From a virus (taxonomy: Duplodnaviria > Caudoviricetes), in IMG/VR virus record IMGVR_UViG_3300013426_000018, positions 32,001 to 96,000 of that record: a stretch of 64,000 nucleotides of DNA; one strand, 5' to 3'. The position numbers were made by a program, and so were the translations under genes. Below, in pieces: positions 3,046 to 64,000 of this stretch. The notes under the pieces were generated by a model that saw only the letters and a program-made list of their open reading frames with translations, had not been told where the DNA came from and ran no database searches. The number at the start of each line of letters is the position of its first letter. Position 1 is the first letter of the stretch.

Positions 3046-4685
3046 TAATCGGGATTCTCCTTAACAAATTGTCGCAATTCATCTTCATCCATTTCTTGAG
3101 ATTGGAATTCCGCAAAATCTTCAAAATCTTTATCAGTAGTTATCTAACTTTCGATATCTTCCATTGCCATATCATCAAAATCAACAATATCATTTTCATT
3201 TTTAGCTTCAGCGTCTTCTTTTGCATTACGCTCAATAGCAGCTTGAAGTAATTCATTTAAATTAGTTTCTTCTTCAACCAACCTACGAGTATAACGTTGC
3301 ATATCTTGAAGAGTTATATCAACTCTATCATTTGGCTTATCTGAGTAAAATCTTTCAATATAACCATCTTTTTCACAAAGAGCAATTAGCTCTCCAACAG
3401 AATCAACACATTCACCATTTTCTGCTTTATTCTGAGCGGCTGTACATAATTATTAAATTACTGACTATTTTTTACTTATAATTAAATATAAGGAAATCAT
3501 TTCAAATTGCGTATCAATAGCAATCTTACTTTCCCGCCCAAAAGGCAAAGGAAATAGTCGATACAGGTTTATGCGCTAAGGCACATATTTCCCACGAGAT
3601 TACTTTATAGTTCCCTCGTTAGCTTAATTAAATATTAAACCCCAGTGATAAACTGGAAAAATTTTTCATAGTCCACAATTTGAACTTACCACTTTTCATA
3701 AGAGCATCATAAACTTTGCTCATCTTCTAAAAGCCATCTACCATAATTTTCTTTTGTTTCCAAAAGGATCAGACTATATCATCTACAAAAGTAGTTCTTC
3801 ACTTCCAAATAATTGTACTTCCTTGCGGAATAGTCGTTGAACTTTTTTGCCCATGGCAATTTTAGTTGCTGATTACCTATACGGCTTCCAGCAGTTCAAA
3901 GAATTTAATGGGGACGTAGTCCCATCCCCAATATCAATAAGCTAATTCATTTTTAGAGATGTCTTACAAATAAATTTTAATGTATCAACATGCCCAGCAG
4001 TCTAAATATCATAGGACTCCATCATATCATTATATAACTATTCAAGCTAAACCCATTCGGCTGGTTTATAGCCTTTGCCCCATTTAAGACGCAATTGGAG
4101 CTTTTCTTCATCAGTTAAATCAATATCTATGTCTGGAGTATCATCAACTTCTGTAAAATAGTCGTCCTAAGGCTGGCTAGAAAATTTATTAGCTTCCACT
4201 GGCTCAGGTTCATTAACATAAGCCGGAATTGCGATTTCTTCATCCATATTAGGAATAAGGAATTTGGGGTCATCAAGAGCTTTGGTAATTTCCTATTGGT
4301 CATAACCTCGGTCTTTCATAGCCTATTTTAATTCATTTTGTTCTTTTTCTTTTAAAAATTCAGTGTCTTTCCAACGATAATCTTTATACTAGATCATTCG
4401 CATTTTGCCAAGATACCTACCTATAATAGTTGCTCCGGTCAATTTTGTTTTATCCCGACCGTATTTCTCCATTAGGCTATACCATTGACTAGGTATATAA
4501 GGAACATCGGCTTCTTGCAGAATCCACATATAAGTATCTGGGTCCCAATTGTTGACGTGCATTGTTAAACATTTTTTACATTGATGGAATTTCCCATCGG
4601 GATATTTTTCTAAGTTATTAGATGAATAGAAATTTTTTTCATCCATTGTTTTGTGGCATTTTTCACAATATAAAGTCATTGCCAT
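3045..4685 (-). CDS. Zn-finger protein directly upstream of terL (candidate terminase small subunit), spliced (exons 4685-3924, 3741-3683, 3444-3045), TAG=Gln
   Basis: Joined frame ...KTSLKMN(Q)LIDIGD|VDGF(Q)KMSKVYDALMKSGKF|TAAQNKAE...KENPD*. The stop overlaps the terL ATG (TAATG). The TerS function is inferred from position only. Confidence 0.8.
3445..3682 (-). mobile_element. Group I intron, ORF-less, 238 nt (core differs from the other introns)
   Basis: P1 AGUU/GACU; GCUAACGAGGGAAC..CUCGUGGGAA; R CUGUAUCGACUA; S AAAAUAGUCAG; terminal G at 3445. Removal restores UU|U (Phe). Confidence 0.85.
3742..3923 (-). mobile_element. Group I intron, ORF-less, 182 nt
   Basis: P1 GGGGAU/GUCCCC; P UGCUGGAAG, Q AAUCAGCAAC, R GUUCAACGACUA, S GAUAUAGUCUGA; terminal G at 3742. 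Removal restores GD|VDGF. Confidence 0.9.
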
Positions 4686-18353: not shown

Positions 18354-18546
18354 TTGATTTTATTAAAAAAATATGATATAATAGGCTTTGCCCCACTTTT
18401 TCTACTTGATTTTTAATTAAATTTATGGTATAATATTAAAAAAAGGAACTTTTTAGTTGATTTTATTAAAAAATTATGGTATAATATTAAAAAAAGATAA
18501 TTTTTATTGTGTTTTTATTGATTTTACGCAAAAATTTTAGTATAAT
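18354..18546 (+). promoter_or_regulatory. Four tandem sigma-A-like promoters upstream of the initiator operon
   Basis: TTGATT-N17-TATAAT repeated at about 18354, 18406, 18457 and 18518. Confidence 0.7.
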
Positions 18547-18575
18547 ATAATAAATAATAGGCAAAGGAGACACTT

Positions 18576-18771: not shown

Positions 18772-19464
18772 ATGGCTAATTTATTTTTAAAAGTAGATAA
18801 ACGATTTTATTTTTTAGGCGTTGACCCATTGGGAATTCTTATTTTAAGTTAGATAAACGAATATACAAGTAAAGGTATGACCTGTTTTATTAGTAATGAA
18901 TAGTTAGCTAAACAATTTGGCTCAAGTTTAAGTACAGTAAAAAGAACTATTACTAATTTAGAAAAAATGGGATATCTTAATAGAGATACTAAAAATACTA
19001 ATCAAGGTAAAGAACGTTTTTTAACTATTAATGAAGAAATAATAGAAAGTACTTATGCCAAGGCTCAATCTGAGCTTTGCCAATCCGCAAGGCTCACCGA
19101 GAACCTTGCGCAAGGTTCAATTTGCCCCTTGGGCAAGGGTCAGAATGGACCTATAAAAGATAAGAATGAGGAGCAAGCTCCTCTGGAAGAAGATAAAAAT
19201 AAAAAAGATAAATTAGGGGCTACGACTTCAAAAATTTCCTATGAGGTTACTCAAGCTCCTAAGTAGTCTTAAATTCTTTCTGAAATTCAGAAGAACTCTA
19301 AAAACCAAAAGGAAAAAGAAAGGAACAAGATAGATATCAATAGACTTCCATTAATAGACAAAGAAGAAGTAGATAAAAACCCAAATAGATATGTCCAACA
19401 AGATAATTCAATTGTAGTTGACTTTTATACTTCAAAGAGTTATAGAATAAAAGAAAAAGAATAA
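18772..19464 (+). CDS. Phage replication initiator-like protein (N-terminal winged HTH, lambda O / replisome-organiser architecture), TAG=Gln
   Basis: CFISNE(Q)LAKQFGSSLSTVKRTITNLEKMGYL HTH, an internal quasi-palindromic repeat cluster and a following A-rich tract. Confidence 0.75.
19059..19152. repeat. Four quasi-palindromic iteron-like units inside the initiator gene
   Basis: CAAGG(C/T/G)TCA at 19059, 19088, 19111 and 19134 (spacing 29, 23, 23), each followed by a complementary half-site, e.g. CAAGGCTCA-atc-TGAGCTTTG. Confidence 0.7.
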
Positions 19465-19760
19465 AAAAATTAAGGGATAAGCTATGCTTATCCCTTTCCT
19501 TTTGGAAAATTTCAGTTGAAAATTTCAGATGTTCCTTGCCCTTCGGGCAAATTTGGTTTCATTTTTTAAAATGTCCCCTTACTTGTTTTTATTTAAAATT
19601 TTTAGTATAATATAATGGGATATATTATTATATAATAAAAAATGTTAAAAAATTTTGTTAAAAAAGGTTATACCGGAACGAAAAAGTAAGCGTGAATTTG
19701 GACAAAATGTGAAAATAATATCCAAGGTATTTTTATATTACTATGGAAGGAGGCATATTA

Positions 19761-20399
19761 ATGTCTAAAAAATACGAAAAAAGTTTTCCCGCAGACACTT
19801 CTTTAAATAAAGATGCTGAAGGGAATTTAATAAAAACATTCTTAAACGATCCTAAAGCCGATGCAGAACTCTATGCTTATTTATTATCAATGTCAAAAGG
19901 TGATAAAGAAAAAAAAGAAACAATAGTTTATAAAAATACTTTACCCTCTTAGTCATTCATAGCAACAGAAATTCTTCATTATAAAAGTCGTCGAACAGTT
20001 ATTAACCATTTAAATTATCTTAAAGAGCAGAAATATGTTATAGACGAAGGTGAATATTATATTTTACCCAATAAAGAAAAAATGTATTTTAAAATTCCTC
20101 AAGATTTATTAACTTTTTTCTTAACTACAGTAAAAGAGCCTGTTATTAAAACTTATATCTATTTGGGGTAGAGAAATAACTATAAACCTAATCAGTATGT
20201 TTTTACATTAAAAGAAATATGCGAACATTTAGGTTTATGTTACTCAAAAAACAGTGAAACTATTAAAGATTATCTTTTTATTTTAGAACAGTTAAAACTT
20301 ATTAAAGTTGTTAAATTTTATGAAGGAAATATTCCTAAAATGCGATTAATTCATTTTACTACTGAAATATCAAAAAGAGAAAAATATTTGATTGATTAA
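19761..20399 (+). CDS. Tandem winged-helix protein A (Rep-initiator-like), 212 aa, TAG=Gln
   Basis: Two HTH-like motifs (PS(Q)SFIATEIL..SRRTVINHLNYLKE; FTLKEICEHLG..TIKDYLFILEQLKLI); close paralog of 21002. Confidence 0.8.
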
Positions 20400-20402
20400 C
20401 CA

Positions 20403-20489
20403 TGTGAAAAAATAGTTAATTAGTGTGTGAAAAAATAGTTAATTAGTGTGTGAAAAAATAGTTAATTAGTGTGTGAAAAAATAGTTAAT
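20403..20489 (+). repeat. 23-bp tandem repeat, about 3.8 copies (iteron-like)
   Basis: TGTGAAAAAATAGTTAATTAGTG perfect copies at 20403, 20426, 20449 and partial at 20472, followed by AT-rich AATAATACTAAATAA repeats and a hairpin. Confidence 0.95.
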
Positions 20490-21001
20490 AATTCTAAATA
20501 ATACTAAATAAACTTAATAATACTAAATAAGCGGTTATTTAATCAAATCGCTTCGCTCATTGATTAAATAACCTTAAGGGACTCGCACATCAAATTTCAG
20601 TTGAAAATTTCAAACATTCCTTGCCCTTCGGGCAATTTTTATTACTTTAATAGAAATCTCCCTTTTTTACTAATACCAAGAAAGAGCCTTGATTTCAGTA
20701 ATTTTGGGAGGTTTCTATTACTTTAAAAGATTCCATTAAAGAACCTTCCAATAGATAATAAAAAATAAGAAGACATAATAAAACAAGTACTGTCCAAGAG
20801 AGAAAAAATGTATTATATGTGGAGCAAAGCTCCATCAAGGGAGGCCCTCCCTTATTATATCATAATTTTTTATTAAAAGCAAATTTGTTAAAAATATTTG
20901 TTAAAAAAGTAAGTATGAGTATGTTAAAAAATCATAACAGCTTTGGGCAAACTTTTTCCAATTACCTTTTTCATTTTTCATAATCTTTGAAAGGAGGCTA
21001 T

Positions 21002-21619
21002 ATGTGCCTAAAAAATACGAAAAAAAATTTTCCCGCAGATACTTCAATGAAAAAAGATGAAGAAGGAAGACTTATTAAAACATTTTTAAATGATCCCAAA
21101 GCTGATGCTGAACTTTACACCTATCTTTTATCAATGTCGATAGGAGAGGAAGGAGAAACTCGAGTTTATAAAAATGCCCTTCCCAATTAGGAAACTATTG
21201 CTACTAAAATTTTACGGTATAAAACTCGTAGAACTGTTTATAATCATTTAAAGTATTTAGAAGATTAGGAATATGTTCAAGACAAAGGTAAATATTATTT
21301 ATTACCCAACAAAGAAAAAATGTACTTTAGAGTACCACAAGATTTACTCTCTTTCTTTATTGATACTGTTAAAGAACCAGTTATTAAGACTTATATTTAT
21401 TTAGGACAAAGAAATAACTATAAACCCAACTAGTATGTTTTTACTATTAAAGAAATATGTGAACATTTGGGAATTAGTTACACTAATAATTCTTCTTCTG
21501 TTAGAAATTACTTAACTGCTTTGGAAAAATTTGAATTAATAAAAACAGTAGAGTTTTATGAAAATGAAACGCCAAAAATTCGTTTAATAGGATTCTCTAC
21601 TAATAGCCCTAAGAAATGA
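21002..21619 (+). CDS. Tandem winged-helix protein B (paralog of 19761), TAG=Gln
   Basis: Colinear with protein A (FPADTS..LIKTFLNDPKADAELY..VKEPVIKTYIYLGQRNNYKPNQYVFT). The recognition-helix segments differ. Confidence 0.8.
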
Positions 21620-21634
21620 GAATTTGATTCACGC

Positions 21635-21721
21635 TGGGAAAAAAATACTGAAAGGTTTGGGAAAAAAATACTGAAAGGTTTGGGAAAAAAATACTGAAAG
21701 GTTTGGGAAAAAAATACTGAA
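21635..21721 (+). repeat. 23-bp tandem repeat, about 3.8 copies (iteron-like)
   Basis: TGGGAAAAAAATACTGAAAGGTT at 21635, 21658, 21681 and partial at 21704. Confidence 0.95.
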
Positions 21722-21843
21722 CATTCTAACTAAACTAAGAAGTAAACAAAACGGGGAAGCTTTTAACTTCCCCTTAATTCTAAACGTCTCTCTTTTAACA
21801 AAGAGAGACTTAACTAATACTCTCGCGTATCAAATCTTCTCCT

Positions 21844-22594: not shown

Positions 22595-22788
22595 TCCAAT
22601 AGTCAGTGAAAAAAGAAATAATATTATGATAGAACTTTGTCCTAGGAGAAAAGAAATATACGTTGTTACCTTTTTTTTCGCATTGTATTTATCTTCTATC
22701 GCAAAAAAAAGGTAACAACGTAAATGAATTAGTCAACAGCTGTTACTTTATTCATCCAATAGCCAGTGAAAAAAGAAATAATATTATG
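22595..22788. repeat. 34-bp direct repeat pair flanking a perfect 20-bp inverted repeat
   Basis: TCCAATAG(T/C)CAGTGAAAAAAGAAATAATATTATG at 22595 and 22755; IR TACGTTGTTACCTTTTTTTT at 22659-22678 / 22703-22722. Confidence 0.9.
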
Positions 22789-23000
22789 TGTAGGGCCTAC
22801 CCCCATATATTATAGCATAAATTTTAATTAAAAGCAAATAGGTAAAATATTTGACTATAAAATAGGCAAAATTATACCAGTCCAAAAGGGTAAAAAAGTA
22901 GTAGTTCAAAAATTATTAAATTGCTTGACATAGTTAAACGGTTAATATTTAAGGGAGTCAAGGTTGAATTAATTAAAAATTTTTGACACACCAACTCAGG

Positions 23001-23097
23001 TATTTTAAACTATTTTAAACTATTTTAAACTATTTTAAACTATTTTAAACTATTTTAAACTATTTTTAACTATTTTTAACTATTTTTAACTATTTTT
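23001..23097. repeat. 10-bp AT-rich tandem array
   Basis: TATTTTAAAC x6, then TATTTTTAAC x3 plus a partial copy. Confidence 0.95.
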
Positions 23098-26889: not shown

Positions 26890-27711
26890 ATGGAAGATAG
26901 CCTTCAACAATACCTAAGAGAGATATCTCAATATCCCCTATTGACTCCAATAGAAGAATAGGAATTGACTCAAAAAACCTTCTTGGGCGATGATAAGGCA
27001 CGCCAATGTCTTATCAATTCTAATCTGCGTTTAGTAGTATCTATCGCACGAGCTTATCGTAATTGCGGACTTCCTTTCATCGACTTAATTCAAGAAGGCA
27101 ATCTTGGTCTTATTAAAGCCGTTGATTCTTTTGATCCTTCTCTAGGGACGCATTTTTCAACATATGCTACTAGTTGGATTCGTCAAAAGATTGGACGAGC
27201 ATTAAGTAATGATTCCCGCAATATTCGGATTCCCGCCCATTTAGCCGAGCTACAATCTACTCTTAAAAATGTGTCTTCTAAAGTATTAGCTTCTACCGGC
27301 AAAGAACCCACTAATAAAGAATTAGCGGTTTTGCTCAATTTAGATACTAAAAAAGTCACAGAAGTGTTAAATTGTGATCACGCAATTACATCTCTTGATA
27401 CTCCTGTGGGTATCGATGAAGAAACAACGGTCGGTGATTTAATTCCCGATTCTTTCATCGATGTAGCTAAAACGGTAGAGGAAAAGATTGACGGAGAAAT
27501 CATTAACTCAGTAGTCGATACTCTTTCTCCAAGAGAAAAAGAAGTAATCAATCGTCGTTTCGGATTGCGGGGACAGATGCCCGCAACTCTTGAAGCTATT
27601 GGGCGAGATTTAGGTCTATCTAAAGAACGAGTGCGTCAATGCCAATCTACGGCTTTACGCAAATTGCGTCATCCTTGCCGTAGTAATATTTTAAAGGATT
27701 GTATGTTATGA
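26890..27711 (+). CDS. RpoD/SigA-like RNA polymerase sigma factor with a single in-frame TAG at codon 24
   Basis: Region 1.2 MEDSLQQYLREISQYPLLTPIEE(Q)EL; region 2 NLRLVVSIA..DLIQEGNLGLIKAV..FSTYATSWIRQ; region 4 TLEAIGRDLGLSKERVRQ..ALRKLRHP. Confidence 0.95.
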
Positions 27712-42231: not shown

Positions 42232-43029
42232 TTGAATTACTATCTTACGGGCGATTGTCACGGAGATTTTTCGCGTTTTTATGATTTTACTAAAGATATA
42301 GACCCGAAAAATTGTTGCTTTATTTGCTTGGGAGACTTCTGCGCAAATTATTATTTAAATAAGACTGACTATAAAAATAAAAAAAGATTAAATTCATTAG
42401 GAAGTCAATTTTATATAATCCGAGGCAATCATGAACAACGCCCGTCTCTTATCCCTACTATTCAATGGGCCTATGATGAACAAGTCAGTGGCATTGTAGG
42501 CACTGAACCAGAGTTTCCCAATATTCATTATTTTAAAGATGATGTAAATGAGTATATTATTAATGAGTATAAATGTTTAATTGTTCCTGGAGCATTTAGT
42601 GTCGATGGAGAATATAGACGTCAAAGAACACTTAGTAATGGTTGGTGCGGCTGGTGGGAAAATGAACAGCTTACGCAAGAAGAAATGGATGCAGGATTCG
42701 CACTTGCCGCAAATAAATCTTATGATTTTATTCTTAGCCATACTTGTCCAATTTCCATTGGGCCTACAGATTTATTTCTTTCTGTGGTGAATCAGAAAGA
42801 AGTTGACAAGACTATGGAAAATTATTTGGAAAAGATTAAGGAAAATACTTCTTTTAAGTGCCTTTGCTTTGGGCATTATCATTCTGATCGTCTTGAACGT
42901 CCAAACGCACAGATGTTCTTCCAAGAGGTAGAATCAATGGATGACATTTTTGCACGAGTGACACAGCCTGTGACCGCACCTGATTATAAGCATATTAAAT
43001 CACCTAATTATTATATGGAGGATAATTAA
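42232..43029 (+). CDS. Calcineurin-like metallophosphoesterase
   Basis: GDCHG, LGD, RGNHE, SHTCP, FGHYH. Confidence 0.92.
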   Translation: MNYYLTGDCHGDFSRFYDFTKDIDPKNCCFICLGDFCANYYLNKTDYKNKKRLNSLGSQFYIIRGNHEQRPSLIPTIQWAYDEQVSGIVGTEPEFPNIHYFKDDVNEYIINEYKCLIVPGAFSVDGEYRRQRTLSNGWCGWWENEQLTQEEMDAGFALAANKSYDFILSHTCPISIGPTDLFLSVVNQKEVDKTMENYLEKIKENTSFKCLCFGHYHSDRLERPNAQMFFQEVESMDDIFARVTQPVTAPDYKHIKSPNYYMEDN

Positions 43030-43532
43030 ATGGACGGAATCACTGTTGTAAATACTATTCAGGGCATTGTTGGTTATGGTAATGGTTGGAGCTTTTAGGT
43101 AATACCAAGCCAAGCCAATTTATGGCCCTCAACAAGTTGTTCTCATAGATGATGATGTTTCATTTAATGATTTTATGGATAGATATGTGATTGTTGCTCA
43201 TGAGGGTGAACTCTATACTATTTATGAAAAGTAAATTTTTGTAATAATTAAAAATTTTTAGTATAATATTTATAGAAAGATTAAGAAAGGGAGTTGTGAA
43301 ATATGTATTCTGTTTATTTTACTGCTACAGTTTATGAAGATAATGGCACTCATCGGGTTGAATGTGGGGCTATTACCAATATTAATAGCTATGTTGATGC
43401 TATGAAAAAGCTTGAAAATTTTTATGGAGATACTCTTGATAAAATCGAAATTAAGTTATTTGATACTGAGATGATGGTTTTTACTCCTGAAGATGGCATT
43501 CGCATTCAGGAAATTCTGGCAGGTAATGCCTT

Positions 43533-43997
43533 TTGAATTGTGATAGTTGCGTAATTGCCCATCTTGGAATTAATGGAAATTGCCCAATTTTTAATAGAGA
43601 TATGTAGGGAAATGATGGTTGTCCAATGTATGCTTCTAAATTAAACCCTTGTGGGATTTGTGGCGGCCATATTATGGGTGAATCTATTATTGATCGAGAT
43701 GAATAGGGTAATTTTCATCAAATTTGTGTCGGATGCTCAGCAAGGGAAGAATGTAATATTTGCGTAAATGCTGGGGCATGTCAATTTGATAATATGAATA
43801 TCCATCCTGAAATTCAGCCCTATATTATGAAAGTGGAGCGACAGGGGCCAATGACAATTCAAAGACAAGCTCCAAATGAAAAACGAATTGAAGTAATTTG
43901 TAAAGAATGCTTGTGCTATAATTCAGAAGATAAAGAAAAATATTGTTGTAAACAAATTGGCGGATGTAAGAATTACAAAGTGAATTGGAGAGATTAA
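43533..43997 (+). CDS. Cys-rich protein, TAG=Gln
   Basis: TTG start overlapping the previous stop; many CxxC; in frame with track ORF 43794. Confidence 0.65.
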
Positions 43998-43998
43998 T

Positions 43999-44367
43999 AT
44001 GTATCATTGGCTTACTAGCAAGAACGTTAAAGTTCATCAACGTAGAATGAATAAGCGTATACGTGATTTTAACAATAATATCAAAAATGATAGCCTTTGG
44101 CGAGGACGCTTTTATGTTCATCAGGTTGGGAGACAGAGGCTCACTTATGAAGATGGTAGCGGTATGGAGTTGTGGGTAATTCTTGAACTTGTTGACCGCA
44201 AAACTGGACGCACTAAGCGGATTTCTGGCACTGTTAACCATTTGACGTTTACCGGAGACCTTTGGATGGCAATGAATTCTTTTATAGTGGATACAATTTC
44301 TGTTTGGTCAGAAGACCCTCGTCCGGGCACAAAAGAGTGGTTTGAGAATATTGATTGGGAGGAATAA
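43999..44367 (+). CDS. Hypothetical phage protein
   Basis: GGAG RBS; operon context. Confidence 0.75.
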   Translation: MYHWLTSKNVKVHQRRMNKRIRDFNNNIKNDSLWRGRFYVHQVGRQRLTYEDGSGMELWVILELVDRKTGRTKRISGTVNHLTFTGDLWMAMNSFIVDTISVWSEDPRPGTKEWFENIDWEE

Positions 44368-44945
44368 ATATGTTTTATATTAATTTAATTTTTCTATTTA
44401 TTTGGGTTTTTTCTTTGATAGTTGAAATTTCTAATAAGGGAAGTGAGGAGGATATTTTCCATAATGCAGTATGGATTTTTAATTTTGCTTATCTTGTTTT
44501 ATGGTCTTCTTCTTTGGCCCTCCCTATTGCCGTTTCTTATGGTATTGAGATTTTCCTTGCAACTATTTGGGGCATTGATACTTATAAGCTCTATAAAGTA
44601 GGCAACAGTGTCAAATCTATCTCTTTGATAATGATGGTCTTATGGATTGTAGCAATTATTATGAGAATTAAAGGAGCTATTTAATTAGTTCCTTTTTTGT
44701 TTTTTATTAAAAATTTTGTTATAATATTTATGTAAAAAAGATAAGGAATGAGGTATGAATTATGGATGACGTATTCGGTTGCATGTTTGTGCGGAAACAG
44801 ATGATTGACGATTTTATCGAAGTTCTTGGGGCTACAGATGATCCAAATGATTATAGTAATCAAGTGGATGCCGCACGATGTGTAGGTATTAATATGAATG
44901 ATTTGACCACTGACGAAATTGAGTACATTGAAAGGAAGCTTAGTA

Positions 44946-45221
44946 ATGGAGATTACTAATAAAGAAGCTGTCTTTAATGCTTTAAAAACCTATGGATGTT
45001 CTACCTCTAAGCAAATTGCAAATCTTATTCATAAAGATTATAACATTAATATTACTCCCGCCCAAGTAGCTGGCTCGATTCGAACATTTATTAAAAGTGG
45101 TATGGCCGCAAGTTCTAAGGATGGGTATAACAATACTTACTATTGGCTTAATGATAACTGTTTTTGGGGCAATATCGCAGTTCTTGACGATATCTCTGGT
45201 ATTTGGAGGCTTAAAAAATGA
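44946..45221 (+). CDS. Small winged-helix protein
   Basis: TSKQIANLI..TPAQVAGSIRTFIKSG..TYYWL. Confidence 0.65.
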   Translation: MEITNKEAVFNALKTYGCSTSKQIANLIHKDYNINITPAQVAGSIRTFIKSGMAASSKDGYNNTYYWLNDNCFWGNIAVLDDISGIWRLKK

Positions 45222-45796
45222 ATTTGCCCGGAGTATATAAAATTTTTCTTGACAGATGGGATGAATATCAGTCTTGCTTCCTTGTCTCAGATACCCATTT
45301 TGGAGAAATGGATTTAGAAAAAGCATATCCTTTTCGCCCAAAAGCAGAAGAATTCGTTAAGTTAATTAATTCTAAAGTTGGGCGTAAAGATATTATTATT
45401 TGTTTGGGTGATTGCGGCAACCTTGAATACTGGAAGAAGATTCGTGGCTATAAGATACTTATAATGGGAAATCATGATACTAGTATTAAAAAGTGCCATA
45501 AGGTATTTAATGAAGTCTATCAGGGACCTGTTATTCTCGGTGAAAAGTTAATCTTATCCCATGAGCCCATTGCTGGCATCGATTGGGCATTAAATTTTCA
45601 CGGGCATACACATGATGGGCCCATTAAATCTGATCCTTATCATCTTAATATCAACTGCGATGCTAACAAGAGATATGAACCTTTTAACTTAAATAGTATG
45701 TTAAAGCATGGCCCAACTGCACATATTAAATCTCTTCATAGAGATATTATTGATAAAGCAACAACTCGAAAAAGTAAAAGAGGTGCCCGCAAATGA
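45218..45796 (+). CDS. Calcineurin-like metallophosphoesterase
   Basis: SDTHF, LGD, GNHD, SHEP, HGHTH. Confidence 0.92.
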   Translation: MNLPGVYKIFLDRWDEYQSCFLVSDTHFGEMDLEKAYPFRPKAEEFVKLINSKVGRKDIIICLGDCGNLEYWKKIRGYKILIMGNHDTSIKKCHKVFNEVYQGPVILGEKLILSHEPIAGIDWALNFHGHTHDGPIKSDPYHLNINCDANKRYEPFNLNSMLKHGPTAHIKSLHRDIIDKATTRKSKRGARK

Positions 45797-46143
45797 AAGT
45801 TTATATTATTACAGATGATGAAGACGCTTATTTTGTTGAGGAATCTCCATTTGTTTGTTCTAATAGAGGTGACGCTGAAGAGATTCTACTTTCTCTTTTG
45901 GAAGAAGATATGCTAGATTCTTTTAATTATCTTTGTCAGGATGATGAAGAAGAGTTTTGCTGTGTTCCTTCTAGAGTTCTTCCTTGGGAAGATGAATTCT
46001 ATGTAAATTGTAAGCAATGTGATAGATTTATGTGTAAAAAATTAAAAGAAATTCTTAATTGTTATGATTTGATTAGCTTTAATCATTATAAAATTATTGA
46101 AACTGAATTGTTTTAAAGGAAAATATGTGGAGAAAAAATAAAT

Positions 46144-46428
46144 ATGAAAAGAATTGGTTACTTTTTGCTCGGTATTGTCTTTGCGTTCGTCCTATCTTTT
46201 GGCATTAATTCGGTTTCTGCTGCTGGTTTTACTGAGCCTTTGGAAATTTATTATCAAAATACTAATCAAGATATGAATACTTTTTGTATTATTGATCGTG
46301 ATACTGGCGTTAACTATGTTGTAGTCCAGTATAAAGCAGATATTTATAAAAGTAATTCTAATGGCTCAGTAGCTATTTGCCCCAGATATGATTCTGATGG
46401 GAGTTTATATATTGATTATGGGAACTAA
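46144..46428 (+). CDS. Exported small protein (DUF6440-like)
   Basis: Signal peptide; IIDRDTGVNYV..ICPRYDSDG. Confidence 0.65.
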   Translation: MKRIGYFLLGIVFAFVLSFGINSVSAAGFTEPLEIYYQNTNQDMNTFCIIDRDTGVNYVVVQYKADIYKSNSNGSVAICPRYDSDGSLYIDYGN

Positions 46429-47071
46429 AGAAATTTAGTTCCTTTTTTTGTTTTTTATTAAAATTTTTGGTATAATATATATAGAAAGAATTAAGGAATA
46501 AAGCTCCTTAAAGAATGAAGAAAGGGATTGATAAAATATGGAAACTAATAGAGTTTATTGTGAAATTTATAACTCTGAAGAAGAAGATTGGGACCTTTAT
46601 CTTATGCCCGCAGATTTGGCATTTAGTATCCAGTTGGTGCTCGGCGGAGAATTTTTTCATTATGTTGATGAATCTGCTATTGAATTTGTGGAAGAATAAA
46701 TTATGGAAAATTATAATACTATTTGGCATATTAAATTAAATGATAATGGTAGACACTTCGATGATGTATATTTCGTTAGAGAAGAAGCTGCTAGACGATA
46801 TATTGAAATTAATAAAGATATATGGCGACGGGAAGGTTTATTTTGGACTCTTGGCGGCGAAACTTTGTGGTTGTAAAGGAATGTGATACTATGGAAAAAA
46901 TGATTTATGTAAAAAACATTGACGTAAATGAAGTTAACAGTTACCTTAAAAAGGCTGGAAAGTTAAGCTTATCTCTTCTGTAGCACAAAGCATTGCTCTT
47001 GGTGGCAAAGATTATGGCCCAGGGAAAGGTTCATATGGTGCTTATGTTGTTCTTGAGAAGGAGGATGAATA

Positions 47072-47938
47072 ATGAAATTTTTTATTGATTTTGAAGCAAC
47101 TCAGTATAGCGAATATATTATTAGTATTGGCTGTGTTAGTGAGATGGGCGAAAAATTTTATACTCTAGTACATCCTGTTAAAAAGAAACTCACTCCTTTT
47201 ATTACTGAAATGACTGGTATTACTAATGAAATGCTTGAATCTGCTCCTGACCCTGATTCTGCTTTTACTCTTTTTGCTGATTTTGTAAAAGAAACCAGTA
47301 GAGGTGAAGTTCCTGAATACTATTGCTATGGAAGCGGAGATAAAAAGTTTATTAAACGGACTTTGAACAGAATGCATAATTTTTATGCTATTATTTTTGC
47401 TCAGAGTATTATGAGTAACCTTTCTGATTATTCAGTTGATGTACTAAATTATTTTAATAGCTTTAAGGAAAATGCTCCTTCTCTTTTTAAGGCCTATTTG
47501 TTTTTGGCTAATAGAGATGGCGAGAAACAGAACCATGATTCTTTGGAAGATGCTCAGATGCTGAAGTATATTTATGAGCATCTTGAGGAAGCCATTCCCG
47601 CAGATGCCGAAAGGGTTTATAATATTGAAGTTGTTCCTAAGCCCTATCCCAAGAAGAGTGAACTTCCTGAATACGTAGTAGATTGGACGCATCGTAAAAA
47701 GAAAAAGATTATTTGGAAAGTTTGCGGAAGCCAGAAGCCTACTACAAAGATTATTGCTTATAATAATGAACGTAATCTGTATTTTGATAGTATCGAAGAG
47801 GCTGTGTATTGGATTAATCATTTCTTTAGACAAGTTTCTTTGAGAAATAAGGGAATTTTTGAAAATACTAAGAGTAGAATTGAGAAAGTCCTTGATAACG
47901 GAAAAGCTTTTTATGGGTTCCAGTGGAGGGTTGTTTAA
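47072..47938 (+). CDS. DEDDh 3'-5' exonuclease (ERI-1/KapD-like)
   Basis: FIDFEAT..ITEMTGIT..YGSGD..HDSLEDA. Confidence 0.88.
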   Translation: MKFFIDFEATQYSEYIISIGCVSEMGEKFYTLVHPVKKKLTPFITEMTGITNEMLESAPDPDSAFTLFADFVKETSRGEVPEYYCYGSGDKKFIKRTLNRMHNFYAIIFAQSIMSNLSDYSVDVLNYFNSFKENAPSLFKAYLFLANRDGEKQNHDSLEDAQMLKYIYEHLEEAIPADAERVYNIEVVPKPYPKKSELPEYVVDWTHRKKKKIIWKVCGSQKPTTKIIAYNNERNLYFDSIEEAVYWINHFFRQVSLRNKGIFENTKSRIEKVLDNGKAFYGFQWRVV

Positions 47939-48259
47939 TGAAAAATGATTGTAAATATTCGGCTGTTAGAGATATTGTAGATGATTGCGAAATTTGTGTA
48001 GTAAATTCTGATTATCTTTATGTACTAGGACGTAAATGCTGTAATGGAAAATGCCCTTGCGATTACTTTTCCCCGGATAATGAAGTTACTTCTTACATTA
48101 AAAAGAGAAGTCCTTTTATTACTGTTAAGCAATATCAAGCAATTATTGCTTTGTTTGGTAGTTTTTTAAAAGATAGTCTTTCTAAGGAAGAGATTAAAAT
48201 TTTTAAAGCATTTTTTGAATTATGGTTTGGCGAAGATATGGCATAAGGAGGAATAGGAT

Positions 48260-49528
48260 ATGTTGAATAAAGACGGAATACGTGAGCTTGCCTACCTGGT
48301 TCGCATTGATGCTATTAAGCCCATCGTTGGCTCTGATAACTGCGAGTGTGCTGTTGTTAATGGATGGGAAGTAATGGTGCGAAAGAATACCTTCACTGCA
48401 AATGATATTGGTATTTATTTTGAAATTGATTCTAAGGTAAATACTACTAAACCCGAATTTGCTTTTCTTGCCTCTAAGGGCGGTAAGATTAAAACTCAAC
48501 GTTATACCTTTGGTGGCAAGGGCTTGATGATTTCTCAGGGTTTGCTGATGCACCCAAGCGATTTTGGATGGACCATTGTAGAAAGAGAAGATGATACTTG
48601 CTCTACTATGGTGGTAGAAAAGAATGGTACTGCCCATAGAGTTGATGATGAATCTCGTTTTCTTACTTTTACTCTTGGAGTAACTTATTCTACTGCGGAA
48701 GATAATGCGCGTAAGACTAATCCAGATGATAAGTATAAGAAGATGGCTCAGCGTCATGCAAAGCTATTTAAGAAGCCTTTTGTACATTGGATTATGAAGC
48801 ATAATTGGGGCCGCAAGGTAATGTTCTTTTTCTTTGGTAAGAAGAAGGATAAGAAAAATGAGTGGCCTGTAGGAAAGTTCCCCGGTGTATCAAAAACAGA
48901 TCAGGAACGTGCTGAAAATATGTCATGGATTTTGAATGATAAGACGCCTTTTATTATGACTCAAAAATGTGATGGCTCTTCTGGAACTTATATTCTTGAG
49001 AGATTAAAGCATAATAAGTTTGAGTTCTATGTATGTAGTAGAAATATTAGAATGATGAATCCTAATCAGGAATGTTTCTATAAGGATAAGAACTATTACT
49101 GGGAAGTAGCTATTAAATATGATATTGAAAATAAGATGCGGGACTACCTCAATAAACATCCCGATGTGTCGTTCGTATGTTGGCAGGGAGAAATTTGTGC
49201 TCCGCAAATTCAGTCGAATCCCCATCATTTGAAAGAGACTCATTTCTATTGCTTCCATATGACTGATAGCAAAACTGGACGTTTTGACATTCGGGATGCG
49301 GCAAAAATTTGGCATGAGTACGATATGGAAGTAGTCCCTATTGTGGATGAAAATTATATTATGCCTGATGAATTTGAAGAGTTCAAGTTGAGTGCAGATG
49401 GCCTGTATGATGCTTCTGTATGTGAGGGAAATCCTAATTGTGCACGAGAGGGATTCGTTTATTATAAGACTACTGACCCAACTTTCTCTTTTAAGAATGT
49501 CTCAAGATTGTATCTTTTAAAGCATTAA
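48260..49528 (+). CDS. RNA ligase, Rnl2-like/DRB0094 family with N-terminal OB domain
   Basis: Motif I TQKCDGSS, CSRN, WQGEI, FYCF, REGFVY, SFKNVS. Confidence 0.9.
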   Translation: MLNKDGIRELAYLVRIDAIKPIVGSDNCECAVVNGWEVMVRKNTFTANDIGIYFEIDSKVNTTKPEFAFLASKGGKIKTQRYTFGGKGLMISQGLLMHPSDFGWTIVEREDDTCSTMVVEKNGTAHRVDDESRFLTFTLGVTYSTAEDNARKTNPDDKYKKMAQRHAKLFKKPFVHWIMKHNWGRKVMFFFFGKKKDKKNEWPVGKFPGVSKTDQERAENMSWILNDKTPFIMTQKCDGSSGTYILERLKHNKFEFYVCSRNIRMMNPNQECFYKDKNYYWEVAIKYDIENKMRDYLNKHPDVSFVCWQGEICAPQIQSNPHHLKETHFYCFHMTDSKTGRFDIRDAAKIWHEYDMEVVPIVDENYIMPDEFEEFKLSADGLYDASVCEGNPNCAREGFVYYKTTDPTFSFKNVSRLYLLKH

Positions 49529-56814: not shown

Positions 56815-56940
56815 TCTTCAGCACCTTCCTTTCTTCTATTTTTTCATCTATTTTGAACTTCTAAGTAAGAAGTTGTCTAAAATTTGCCCTAATAAAAAAT
56901 TTATGATATAATAATTATGAAAAAGATAGGAGGAATAGAT

Positions 56941-57732
56941 ATGAAAGTATGTTTAAACTCTCATTGCTCTCCTAAGTATCTCGAAAAAGCTGATGAAATT
57001 AAAATTAGTTACAAAGATAGAAATAAAATTATCGATTATGTTGAAAAATATCCAAAAGCAGTAATTGTTTTATCTCTAAGAAGCACATCAGAAGATATCG
57101 AAATTACTTGGGAAGAAATTAAACGATATCAAACTCTTTGTAAAGGAAATTTTTTATTTGCAGTAGTTAATGCGAATCAAGTAAAAGAATGTTCCTTTCA
57201 ATTAATTAATTTTTATCTTGATAGGCCAATTAAAACTTTTGAAGAAGTTTATTGGCTAAAAGCTTTTAATAGTAAATATATCTTAGCAGATTCTCCTTTG
57301 TTTTATAGACTAGCAGACTTGAAAGATTTAGGAGGTATTTCATTACGTATTGCCCCAAATGTAGCATATTACGCAAATGACATTCCTCGTTCTAATGGTA
57401 TTTATGGTTCATGGGTCCGTCCAGAAGACATTGAATTATATAGCGATTATATTGATATCATTGAATTTGAAGATTGTGATGTGAGAAAAGAAGAGGCTCT
57501 ATATAGAGTATATACAGAAACAAAGAAATGGCCAATGGATTTGAATAAATTAATTACTAATTTGGATACACCAATTAATAATTTCTATATTCCTGATACT
57601 TTTGGCTTAATGAGACTTACTTGCGGGCAAACTTGTATGTCTGGCGGAGCATGCCATTGGTGCGATAGAGTTATTGCTTTAGCTAATCATAAAGATTTTC
57701 AAGAAAGGCTGAAAATGACTAATGATAATTAA
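56941..57732 (+). CDS. Hypothetical protein with C-terminal Cys cluster (possibly U32-peptidase-related)
   Basis: WVRPEDIELY..RLTCGQTC..CHWC; family assignment tentative. Confidence 0.55.
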   Translation: MKVCLNSHCSPKYLEKADEIKISYKDRNKIIDYVEKYPKAVIVLSLRSTSEDIEITWEEIKRYQTLCKGNFLFAVVNANQVKECSFQLINFYLDRPIKTFEEVYWLKAFNSKYILADSPLFYRLADLKDLGGISLRIAPNVAYYANDIPRSNGIYGSWVRPEDIELYSDYIDIIEFEDCDVRKEEALYRVYTETKKWPMDLNKLITNLDTPINNFYIPDTFGLMRLTCGQTCMSGGACHWCDRVIALANHKDFQERLKMTNDN

Positions 57733-58624
57733 TAACTTTAAGGTTCTTGAATATATTTGCGGTATAACAGAAAAAGAATTGTTTAAGTTCATAAAAAAAT
57801 ATCTTCAGAATTTTGATTTTAACGCATTCTCGGGAGGTCCAAATCACTACGTTGCTTGGGGAAGCAGTATTATGTTAGTGGCTCATCTTGATACAGTTTT
57901 CCCATCTGTTCCTGATCAGCTCTTCTATGATAAGGAAAAGGATACCATTCTTGCTTTAGGCAATGGGGCAGGTTTTGATGATCGAGCAGGGGTTTACGCA
58001 ATTATTAAAATTCTAGAAAGAGTAACAGCATTAAATTTGCCCCTGCCCACAGTTATGTTTACTCTTGGTGAAGAAGATTTCGGTGTTGGGGCACGAGAAG
58101 CTGCAGAAGAGTATTATAATTTAGATAAGAATATTAAATATATGATTGAGCTTGATAGACAAGGAAAAGATGATTGCGTTTTTTATCAGTGTAGTAATAA
58201 ACAGTTTGAAAAATATATTAATTCTTTTGGATTTAAAACTCAAGCTGGCTCTTACTCAGATATCTCTTTTCTAATGGATAGTTTAAATGTCTGTGGCGTT
58301 AATCTATCTATTGGGTATTATAATGAACATAGTGACTATGAATACTTGCGGCCTAGTTATCTTGAAGATACAATTAATAAAGTTATTGAAATGCTGATTG
58401 ATGAAAAAAATGTTGTAGCTTTTAATTATTTGTCTAAAGGAAATAAAGCAGGAGCTTGTGCCAAATGTAAAAAGAATAGTAGAGAATTAATTAACGTTCA
58501 AGATAAGAAGTATTGCATTAATTGTGTATTAAAATTTTGTGAATACTGTCCTAATTGCGGAAATTTAATTGATATAGATAGAGTCCGTATTTGCCCAATT
58601 TGTCGAGAGGAGATTGTTTTTTAA
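57722..58624 (+). CDS. M28/M20-family zinc peptidase with C-terminal double Zn ribbon
   Basis: AHLDTV, GFDDRAG, GEE, ELDR, SDI, GYYNEH. Confidence 0.88.
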   Translation: MIINNFKVLEYICGITEKELFKFIKKYLQNFDFNAFSGGPNHYVAWGSSIMLVAHLDTVFPSVPDQLFYDKEKDTILALGNGAGFDDRAGVYAIIKILERVTALNLPLPTVMFTLGEEDFGVGAREAAEEYYNLDKNIKYMIELDRQGKDDCVFYQCSNKQFEKYINSFGFKTQAGSYSDISFLMDSLNVCGVNLSIGYYNEHSDYEYLRPSYLEDTINKVIEMLIDEKNVVAFNYLSKGNKAGACAKCKKNSRELINVQDKKYCINCVLKFCEYCPNCGNLIDIDRVRICPICREEIVF

Positions 58625-58923
58625 TGGCTATTAGAGGAACAGAAGCTAAAAATTATGTCACAAAAAAGATTCAAGAAGCTTTTGGGCCATCTTTTTTAGG
58701 AATTGTAGATAAAAAGTTATACGTTAGTGTAAAAGAAAATGGCGAGAATCTACAAGTGGCTATTTCTTTAACTTGTCCAAAAGAGAACTTGGAGTTTGCG
58801 GTTAATGATGCTACACAAAATGGCGGAGCAGTTTCCTCGCAAAATGGCGGAGCTGGATCCGCGCACTTTACCGCAAAAGAAATTGAAACTATTGAAGAAC
58901 TTATGAAACGAGTGGGCCTTTGA
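58624..58923 (+). CDS. Hypothetical phage protein
   Basis: TAATG overlap with the upstream stop. Confidence 0.75.
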   Translation: MAIRGTEAKNYVTKKIQEAFGPSFLGIVDKKLYVSVKENGENLQVAISLTCPKENLEFAVNDATQNGGAVSSQNGGAGSAHFTAKEIETIEELMKRVGL

Positions 58924-59186
58924 GTTAAAACTTAAAAAATGAAAATTCTTATATTATACAGAAATTGATAATATAAAAAATTTTTGGTATAATATCTTTG
59001 TAAGATAATATGAAATTACGGATTTAATATCCTCTTTTATATAAAAAAGTGTAATGGAGGAGCTTGTTATAGGCAAGTTTTACACTTTTTCTTTTCTTAC
59101 TTTTGAAATAAATAGACTATTTCCTATGACGAGTCTTTTGTTCTCGTTAGATTTTTTTCTACGTCATAGTTTACATATTTTTATAT

Positions 59187-59278
59187 GACAGTTTGAGTGA
59201 GTCAGGTTTAAACTAGTTGATTGCTAATCAACCGTGCCAGAAATAGCACCGCTGGTTCAAATCCAGCAACTGTCGCCA
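59187..59278 (+). tRNA. tRNA-Ser(GCT)
   Basis: Acceptor GACAGTT/AACTGTC, anticodon arm GTTGA-TTGCTAA-TCAAC, long variable arm, GGTTCAAATCC, encoded CCA. Confidence 0.92.
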
Positions 59279-59458
59279 TATAGAAATTCTTACATGATTT
59301 AATTCTGTTTTAGCGGGCTATATGCCTGCTATTTTTGTAATGTAAAAATAACACTATATAAAAAAAATAAAAAATATAAGGGGAGCGTTGCTCTTTTTTG
59401 TTTTTATAAAAATTTTATGGTATAATATTTATATAAAAAAGTAAGGAGAATTACTTAA

Positions 59459-60268
59459 ATGGCTTCAAATATTAAGAAAAATAATCAATATTATGGAAAA
59501 TATAGAGAGTGCTGTGTTGTAGCTTGTTTAAATGATTCTCCTGTTGAATATTTTGAAAAATATATTTTCTCACAAGAAGAAAAAGATGATCTTTATCAAG
59601 ATGGTAAAATTATTGCTGACTATTTAGGGGATCATAAGGCTACTTATAGTGGCAATCACACTGCTACTGCGGCAGGAGATATCATTCTAGATAATGGTGA
59701 AACTATTGAATTAAAGTGCATTAGTGCGGGAACAGGGACATATTTTAATACAAGCATTTATTATTTTCAAAAATTTGGATTTAATTTTAAAGATTATATG
59801 GAAAAGTATGGTTTTTACCAGCTTTTGGAAAATAACTTTGGAAAGATCTTTAAAATTAATAGAAAAAATAATTCTCCTATATCACAGCCCAATTCTTCTG
59901 CTATTCGACATAATTACATTGATATTTATAATGAAATTATTGTTCCCGCAGATAAACGAATAAGAGAGTATTTCGTTAAAGACTTAGTAAAATACTTTAT
60001 GGCTCATACTGATAAAATGTATGAATTTATTAATGATATGTTAAATAAAAAAACTGATACTTGTGATAAAGGATCACCAGATAGATTAATTATTTATAAT
60101 TATTCTAAAAAGAAAATTAAAGAAATTAATCTAAGAGATTTTTTTAAAGATGGAGAGATTATTATAACAGATAAAGGATTCAAAATTGGTAATGTCCGTT
60201 TTGCTATTGGTTGGCAAAATGGTAATGGACTTAATAATCCTACTATTCGAGTATTTTTGGAGGACTAA
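59459..60268 (+). CDS. Putative restriction-type PD-(D/E)XK endonuclease (TAG-free)
   Basis: AGDIILDNGETIELK motif; immediately adjacent to an adenine MTase gene. Confidence 0.6.
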   Translation: MASNIKKNNQYYGKYRECCVVACLNDSPVEYFEKYIFSQEEKDDLYQDGKIIADYLGDHKATYSGNHTATAAGDIILDNGETIELKCISAGTGTYFNTSIYYFQKFGFNFKDYMEKYGFYQLLENNFGKIFKINRKNNSPISQPNSSAIRHNYIDIYNEIIVPADKRIREYFVKDLVKYFMAHTDKMYEFINDMLNKKTDTCDKGSPDRLIIYNYSKKKIKEINLRDFFKDGEIIITDKGFKIGNVRFAIGWQNGNGLNNPTIRVFLED

Positions 60269-63887: not shown

Positions 63888-64000
63888 TGGGGAGTAGCGC
63901 AATTGGCAGAGCGAAGGTCTCTTGGATACTTCTGGACATCAAGTCGGGAAACTACTTGATGAATGTCGGCTAACTCGGTGAAACTCTTTTTTAAGACAAC
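63888..64000 (+). tRNA. 5' half of a tRNA interrupted in the anticodon loop by a group I intron (truncated by the window); candidate Gln/amber-suppressor tRNA
   Basis: TGGGGAG TA GCGC-AATTGGCA-GAGC G AAGGT CT CT.. has no 3' anticodon strand. It is followed by a P2-like stem CATCAAGT/ACTTGATG and a P-like AACTCGGTGAAAC. Confidence 0.7.

Follow-up and report, generated by a model that had tools for sequence, protein, structure and literature searches.

The 64,000-nucleotide (nt) stretch of DNA analysed here (the window) covers bases 32001-96000 of the virus record IMGVR_UViG_3300013426_000018, a Caudoviricetes genome of 173,969 bp with 32.7% G+C that CheckV rates as complete. Two tandem units lie at 19507-20591 and 20592-~21810 of the window and form a 78% alignment over about 1.1-1.25 kb. 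Each unit encodes a protein (A and B, respectively) that is predicted to fold into two winged helix-turn-helix (wHTH) domains, and each gene is followed directly past its stop codon by an array of 23-bp direct repeats, or iterons. Judging from conservation, the anatomy of the site and the localised divergence of the proteins, A and B very probably each recognise the array at their own stop codon, with a specificity that has diverged between the two.

In both units a shared block is followed by a pair of TGTTAAAAA boxes, the gene, the array, an AT-rich tract and one or two hairpins, with all these features on the plus strand. The shared block of unit A (19507-19550) contains the direct repeat AAATTTCAG..AAATTTCAG, a motif unique to the two units in the genome, together with the hairpin TTGCCCTTCGGGCAA, and is identical to the block of unit B (20592-20635); both blocks scored as terminator-like. 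AAATTTCAGTTGAAAATTTCA, TTGCCCTTCGGGCAA and TGTTAAAAA..TTTGTTAAAAAA occur once each per unit. AAATTTCAGTTGAAAATTTCA and TGTTAAAAA..TTTGTTAAAAAA are confined to the two units within the 174-kb genome, while the hairpin has one further genomic near-copy within the upstream gene P0003, and the hairpin block resembles, in inverted orientation, a site inside that gene. A putative operator is located at 19643-19665 in unit A (TGTTAAAAAATTTTGTTAAAAAA, a pair of half-iteron-like boxes before gene A, found only in the two units) and at 20886-20908 in unit B (TGTTAAAAATATTTGTTAAAAAA). A similar box pair, or whole iterons, lies upstream of the gene in the relatives L004, L009, L013, L018 and L021 (L-numbers denote other loci or lineages of the family; coordinates are window positions unless given for such a locus). 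Gene A (P0001, 19761-20399) encodes 212 amino acids (aa) with TAG at codons 64 and 137, and gene B (P0002, 21002-21619) encodes 205 aa with TAG at codons 63, 89 and 144. At the 5' end of gene B (21002-21030) an A-run holds one extra A compared with relatives; the frame is rescued by starting at an ATG that precedes the ancestral GTG by 2 nt, and the protein, which starts with MCLKNTKK versus MPKKYEK, is intact.

Array A (20403-20489) starts 4 bp and array B (21635-21721) 16 bp past the respective stop codon, i.e. outside the reading frame. Each comprises 3.8 units of a 23-mer (TGTGAAAAAATAGTTAATTAGTG in A, TGGGAAAAAAATACTGAAAGGTT in B) with four half-site starts, the fourth copy diverging past base 18, and Tandem Repeats Finder (TRF) reports for both a period of 23, 3.8 copies and 100% matches. 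Array A is joined by an AT-rich element (20490-20532, TTCTAAATAATACTAAATAA...), a candidate unwinding element, and by a hairpin read from the sequence with a 14-bp AT-rich stem and a GCTTCGC top (20533-20573). Array B is joined by an A-rich element (21722-21752, CATTCTAACTAAACTAAGAAGTAAAC...) that carries a CTAA[ACG]TAA motif, and by two hairpins, one at 21753-21773 that is terminator-like on both strands and one at 21786-21809 that was read from the sequence. The original prediction, made without database searches, had described two units with shared upstream blocks, paralogous genes, arrays of about 3.8 copies of a 23-mer, an A-rich tract and a hairpin, and all of these parts are found in place.

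The arrays have TG(T/G)GAAAAAA in common and differ in the remainder, as had been noted originally. The only clusters of the shared half-site in the 174-kb genome are found at arrays A and B and at an imperfect third set (~22766-22915, plus strand), which has GGTAAAA-type sites at ~24-bp spacing and no gene of its own, while 20 shuffles yielded 0 clusters. Placed in register across the family, the site consists of TG(G/T)G(T)AA, 5-6 A/T bases, ~7 lineage-specific bp and ~5 linker bases, and the A/T bases of the spacer flip between A-runs and T-runs within one array (L003, L005, L017, L029). Identity at positions 1-10 is 0.91 within arrays and 0.71 between arrays, compared with 0.83 and 0.32 at positions 11-18, and 0.79 and 0.30 at the linker positions 19-23. 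The first half of the site is family-wide, and the second half is particular to each lineage. In every array the final copy breaks off near base 18, where it runs into (A/T)TCTAA(A/G/C)TAA....

A and B are 69% identical. HTH_36 (PF13730) matches the first domain of B with 29 bits, above the cut-off of 25, and that of A with 24 bits, just under it; the match recurs at E <= 0.1 in 31 of 36 family members, covering one domain only and leaving the function undefined, and the second domain of A and B has weak ArsR/MarR-type matches. Both proteins match PHROGs 186 (E 4e-10), 270 and 428, named 'DnaD-like helicase loader' or 'replication initiation protein', at E 4e-10 to 2e-5. NCBIfam gave no match above cut-off, and a sequence-profile search of the PDB returned generic HTH matches only (E > 0.02). 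Based on a 36-sequence alignment, AlphaFold2 predicts two wHTH units (predicted local distance difference test score 94, predicted template-modelling score 0.89) with recognition helices at residues 76-88 and 160-176. The best full-length Foldseek matches of this model are RepE54 and a Rep-iteron-DUE (DNA unwinding element) complex, with template-modelling (TM) scores of 0.40-0.42, E ~1e-2 and probabilities of 0.97-0.99. An independent all-against-all structure alignment retrieved the iteron-bound pi initiator (Z 7.5, 179 residues, root-mean-square deviation 4.6) and domains 2-3 of RctB (Z 6.1, 156 residues) as the only long matches amid many single-domain wHTH matches. The tandem-wHTH architecture proposed at the outset is borne out by the predicted fold, the only full-length structural neighbours of which are iteron initiators of the Rep_3 class and RctB. 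The proposed likeness to Rep_3 initiators holds for the structure, with modest full-length matches to RepE54 and pi, and fails for sequence membership. The model shows, with middling scores, a RepE/pi-like two-domain architecture, which does not amount to proof of homology.

The divergence between A and B is localised. In the second winged-helix domain (WH2), helices 1-2 are 89-94% identical, while the recognition helix drops to 35% (7/20) and the wing to 62%; in the first domain (WH1), the recognition helix is 65% identical. The recognition-helix difference that the original prediction pointed out thus applies to WH2. The simplest reading, by analogy with RepE and pi monomers, is that WH2 would read the variable half-site and the other domain the conserved half, on one face of the DNA. 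In related phages, proteins of the A or B type are found singly (81% identity to A in L005, 85% to B in L003), so that the pair seen here is either an old duplication or includes an acquired second cassette.

The A/B family, nearly all proteins of which have ~190-240 aa, has 120 relatives in 90% clusters, and at 50% clustering it has 792 representatives at E <= 1e-3 and 345 at E <= 1e-10. A single-sequence scan of IMG/VR gave no matches, but a profile scan succeeded; four members lie in bins of metagenome-assembled genomes assigned to Bacillota. For ~40 loci the DNA was fetched, of which 30 distinct lineages were scored for arrays and 32 distinct loci for the AT-rich element; L039, at a contig end, was left out of the array scoring. 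An array with a period of 22-24 begins <=60 bp past the stop codon in 20 of the 30 lineages, some of them very distant. Since 189 kb of the same DNA contain 11 other such arrays, 0.007 would be expected per target (binomial P ~3e-36). Most loci negative by TRF have 2-3 copies of the TAGGTAA-W5-CATAG type directly past the stop, spaced by 23-34 bp, and three copies of a 22-bp repeat lie 125 bp past the stop of a very distant member that is not recoded (profile E ~4e-28). The original prediction had named a general lack of repeats among homologues as grounds for giving it up, and the survey found the opposite.

The pairing extends to P0125 of L004, a distant inverted paralogue (HHalign 96%) with an array of 5.8 copies of its own. 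This third cassette type (L004 5069-5929) has P0125 on the minus strand; a 23-bp array with a TGGAAAGAAAAT core adjoins the 3' end of the gene, and the orientation of this array matches that of the B-type array nearby and is opposite to that of P0125. In L018 and L021 iterons are found on both sides of the gene, as in P1 repA. In the distant member L042 the stop is without an array, and the only one lies ~800 bp upstream. An orphan array in L007 (3575-3680) consists of three 23-bp copies and an AT-rich element but is not preceded by an intact gene; only short family-like fragments are present beside it on the opposite strand (3347-3540).

What follows the last iteron is conserved as well. An AT-rich CTAAATAA-type element is found 3' of the gene or last iteron in 26 of the 32 distinct loci, compared with 0.018 expected, and similar hairpins come after it in relatives. 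AT-rich element A ranks with the least stable 0.1% of all 40-mers in the genome, the cassettes form its most AT-rich 1.5 kb (G+C 0.256), and they lie inside a broad trough of the cumulative GC skew at 38-69 kb.

Genes A and B are whole only if TAG is read through, and are cut into pieces under translation table 11; the need for amber readthrough had been recognised from the start. TAG codons of one paralogue align with CAG or CAA in the other, homologues on other contigs translate with TAG as glutamine (Q), and P0064, a non-recoded homologue without any TAG, has Q at the conserved KPNQY position, which together indicate that TAG is read as glutamine. ARAGORN called no suppressor tRNA. Two tRNA-like halves were read by eye from 63891-64000 onward (L044 391-700), separated by an insert of ~220 nt; when joined they would give an anticodon loop CU-CUA-AA, i.e. 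that of an amber suppressor, likewise without an ARAGORN call. Rfam places a group I intron below the gathering score ~300 nt beyond the halves (L044 917-1114) and a sub-threshold YrlA-like match at L044 260-358. A further group I intron, at 1333-1530 on the minus strand, scores above gathering (61 bits) and lies in a leftward TAG-rich gene block. In-frame TAG is patchy across the window, with long TAG-free gene runs (e.g. 42232-49528 and 56917-60268) and heavy use in the initiator locus, the leftward structural block and a tail-fibre gene, the replication-like locus being a TAG-using island amid TAG-free genes.

Just upstream of unit A lies P0003 (18772-19272, plus strand), a gene for a single-wHTH initiator of the lambda-O/DnaD-N-like type, with matches to HTH_36 (E 6e-10) and to PHROG replication-initiation and lambda-O-like families (E 1e-13 to 1e-10). 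The gene contains four of the genome's eight GCAAGGNNC sites, phased by 23 bp at 19087-19141, and block A has a fifth at 19531; the P0003 orthologues of L003, L004 and L015 retain the cluster. By analogy, P0003 fits the lambda-type arrangement in which the origin lies inside the initiator gene, and repeats within the own frame are seen in P0003 and not in A and B. An in-frame TAA at 19270 ends P0003, beyond which a further 64 codons, to 19464, are free of stops. The tail past the TAA shares 52% identity with the C-terminus of the 209-aa L003 orthologue and is thus conserved, so that the P0003 initiator is here truncated, read through or in two pieces. As a member of the A/B family P0003 was rejected (HHalign probability 8%). 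Four tandem near-consensus sigma-70 promoters (18354-18551; TTGATT, 17 nt, TATAAT, three with an extended -10 TG), which arose by 51-bp tandem duplication, drive a 59-aa gene and P0003.

On the other side of the cassettes, the convergent neighbour P0004 (21844-22533, minus strand; 229 aa, 8 TAG) encodes a multi-wHTH protein of a separate family (HHalign probability 0.6% to A/B, membership rejected), with 119 homologues and the same position in L003, L007 and L009. The predicted fold of P0004, inspected for signs of a helicase loader or primase, consists of wHTH units and a helical hairpin with uninformative matches (best Z 7.4, Foldseek E > 0.05). Its upstream region has two ~33-bp boxes ~160 bp apart (22597-22630 and 22757-22790; CCAATAG(T/C)CAGTGAAAAAAGAAATAATATTATG), both of which hold an iteron-like core GTGAAAAAA. 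At 23001-23096, just past a TTGACA-type promoter and before a GC hairpin, the 10-bp unit TATTTTAAAC recurs 9.6 times (98% matches) in phase with the helical repeat, possibly as bent DNA or a small repetitive transcript; arrays of 10-11 bp are similarly placed in L004 (4998-5064) and L007 (5963-6116). A gene for an RNA polymerase sigma factor (26890-27711; PHROG 351, E 2e-77) with one in-frame TAG follows ~5 kb downstream of the cassettes. Neither a tyrosine integrase nor a PolA gene was found in the genome.

From these observations we infer that the units are cis-coupled initiator/origin cassettes of a new phage protein family, duplicated here with different specificity, a reading to which we assign a probability of roughly 0.55. 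An initiator and its origin fit best because the iteron geometry, the RepE/pi-like fold, the replication-type sequence signals and the conserved AT-rich tract fused to the last repeat all point the same way, and because the tract-bearing locus already contains a lambda-O-like gene. In such a cassette a monomer of A or B would lie along one face of the asymmetric ~18-bp site, one domain reading the family-wide half-site TG(G/T)G(T)AA and WH2, with its most variable recognition helix, the lineage-specific half-site across the 5-6 bp A/T spacer. Four such sites, phased by 23 bp directly past the own stop codon, would bring the last one against an easily melted CTAAATAATA-type tract, at which the strands would open and the helicase would enter. 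The hairpin would close the transcription unit, so that transcription of the gene would cross its own site, as in lambda or R1, and the half-iteron-like boxes upstream of each gene may mediate autoregulation. The two cassettes would then be two orthogonal initiator/site pairs beside a lambda-O-like gene with internal repeats. Since all initiator-like genes of the locus hold TAG, full-length proteins would be made only once amber suppression is active. The orthogonality of the protein-site pairs, already suggested by the original prediction, stands insofar as the pairing is kept while the array sequence changes and the divergence falls in one helix and one half of the site; the binding that it presupposes is predicted.

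Several points weigh against origin cassettes. Within arrays, the uniformity of the linker at positions 19-23 almost equals that of the presumed contact positions (0.79 versus 0.83), and recent amplification, rather than selection, therefore partly explains the uniformity of the arrays. Membership in Rep_3 by sequence is lacking: neither P0001 nor P0002 has a Pfam match to Rep_3 (PF01051 Rep3_N and its C-terminal WH2 partner) at E <= 1, and Rep3_N is touched by only 4 of 36 family members, with a best E of 0.01. The wHTH fold is widespread, and the structural matches score in the middle range. The A-rich tract of unit B is not among the least stable stretches of the genome, and the GC skew here mostly tracks transcription and gene orientation, so that it is not decisive as an origin marker. 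No DnaA box (TTATCCACA, <=1 mismatch) is present at 10.7-26.4 kb, the nearest ones (10649 and 26473) each being ~5 kb or more away, and no helicase or loader gene adjoins the cassettes, the sole, weak DnaB_C-like match lying ~70 kb off. Dependence on the code switch would make the initiators act late, an odd property if this were the only origin. Finally, P0003 with its own phased repeats could be the real origin, in which case A and B would be accessories.

The arrays might instead serve replication control or incompatibility, titrating or handcuffing an initiator-like protein and thereby setting copy number or timing, or excluding co-infecting phages of the same specificity. Placement downstream of the gene would suit such a role, as the control iterons of P1 incA and F incC lie downstream of rep, and so would the relatives with like iterons on both sides of the gene, the gene-less third set nearby and the orphan array of L007; the single occurrence of A- and B-type cassettes in related phages is also what would be expected of swappable specificity determinants. 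However, pure titration would need no AT-rich element, and nearly every locus has a conserved one joined to its last iteron, while most relatives have the downstream array only and show no separate origin for the same protein. We regard this explanation as unlikely. It is likewise improbable that A and B are transcription factors, which would bind the arrays and upstream boxes as clustered operators and regulate read-through or neighbouring promoters as roadblock or activator. The wHTH is mainly a regulator fold, and single-domain matches to CRP/FNR, MarR and Fur dominate the fold search; moreover, half-iteron boxes precede each gene and terminator-type hairpins flank the units. Yet four asymmetric direct repeats at two-turn spacing, read by a monomeric two-domain binder, would be an unusual operator design, nothing lies downstream of unit B on the same strand, where the next gene is convergent, and regulation assigns no role to the conserved AT-rich tract, while the sequence-family matches are to replication proteins.

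A centromere-like function in segregation or genome organisation, with a wHTH adaptor as in TubR/tubC or SopB/sopC and a phage persisting as an episome, is very unlikely. The tandem array directly past the gene of the binding protein is the layout of sopB-sopC and parB-parS, and without a tyrosine integrase an episomal state is conceivable. On the other hand, the complete genome contains no CbiA/ParA, ParB_N or tubulin-like gene (a search for ParM, PF06406, was uninformative, as its control failed), no gene for a partner nucleoside triphosphatase stands beside any of the ~40 family loci, and the fold resembles monomeric initiators, not dimeric centromere binders. Packaging (pac) sites bound by a small-terminase-like protein are the least credible proposal: small terminases do combine an N-terminal wHTH with repeated sites, but A and B have no oligomerisation domain, no large terminase gene adjoins them, the PHROG matches are to replication proteins and not terminases, and two different cassettes per genome would make little sense. 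Among the functions that the original prediction had offered for the pairs, the origin gained ground because the conserved AT-rich element adjoins the last iteron, and partition lost ground with the negative searches for ParA, ParB and tubulin-like genes; all remain candidates.

If the cassettes are origins, they might also be portable, mutually orthogonal modules which set replication compatibility groups among co-infecting large phages and are gated by the amber-suppression switch. The switch, in turn, may depend on splicing of the intron-split tRNA(CUA). We offer this extension tentatively and consider it rather doubtful; if true, the genetic-code switch would double as a switch of replication mode. 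Tandem-wHTH proteins that bind the iterons of a cognate array are already known from plasmids. What appears to be new is a protein family without Rep_3 membership, annotation or cultured member, the fixed order of gene, iterons and conserved AT-rich tract, the presence of two orthogonal cassettes side by side, and the dependence of every initiator-like gene of the locus on amber suppression. The original prediction did not recognise a described phage system, and this impression held: GenBank phages gave no match to the locus by blastn or to P0002, P0113 and P0125 by tblastn, PLSDB plasmids gave none to P0002 by tblastn, and no matching description was found in the literature. A family of ~800 representatives (50% clustering) without annotation and without a cultured or plasmid member has a likely binding site located at the stop codon of the gene itself. 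To our knowledge, replication origins are unknown for almost all uncultured large phages, and the cassette reading, if true, would supply a simple sequence rule to locate candidate origins and initiators in their genomes. Rules of winged-helix recognition could be sought in the natural series of protein/site pairs, in which two paralogues of a single genome, 69% identical, diverge chiefly at one recognition helix and one half-site; the series could also supply orthogonal DNA-binding parts. The link to amber recoding bears on the timing of the life cycle in code-switching phages.

Of the known systems, the Rep_3 initiators (RepE of mini-F, pi of R6K, RepA of pPS10 and P1; PMC4980987) come closest, having two tandem winged helices in ~200-250 aa and asymmetric direct repeats of about two helical turns with an adjoining AT-rich tract. 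They also have half-iteron sites near the gene promoter, in P1 and F additionally iterons downstream of rep, and they provide the best full-length structural matches of A and B. Two of their features recur at the locus, namely the WH1-WH2 tandem in one chain of ~200-300 aa, as predicted with modest scores, and iteron-like direct repeats of ~17-23 bp next to the gene at a spacing of about two turns. By contrast, A and B lack a significant Rep_3 sequence match and nearby DnaA boxes, their array lies at the 3' end of the gene inside the transcription unit and not upstream, the upstream boxes are direct and not inverted, and the setting is a large lytic-looking phage instead of a plasmid. DnaA boxes are common in Rep_3 origins, yet not universal. 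RctB of Vibrio cholerae chromosome 2 (PMC5397143) resembles A and B in that its domains 2-3 are tandem winged helices and that it binds direct-repeat arrays, as predicted for A and B, but it is far larger, with four domains and two site classes under methylation control, and has no sequence relation to them.

Among phages, lambda O with ori-lambda and SPP1 G38P with oriL share with the cassettes an N-terminal wHTH, repeats with an AT-rich tract and, on the proposed reading, an origin within the transcription unit of the initiator. In lambda and SPP1 the origin lies inside the initiator's own gene, whereas the A/B repeats are outside the frame and are asymmetric direct repeats, not dyads; moreover, A and B have two DNA-binding domains and no C-terminal partner-recruiting domain. 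An origin directly 3' of the rep gene, as proposed for the cassettes, is found in the Rep/ori of staphylococcal pathogenicity islands (SaPI) and in RepA-CIS-oriR of R1, in both of which the Rep-ori pairs are cognate and element-specific. Neither protein is of the tandem-wHTH type seen in A and B, SaPI Rep being a helicase with hexamer repeats and R1 RepA not an iteron protein. The location of the site inside the transcription unit of its own gene recalls both the transcriptional activation of ori in lambda and the cis-acting RepA of R1.

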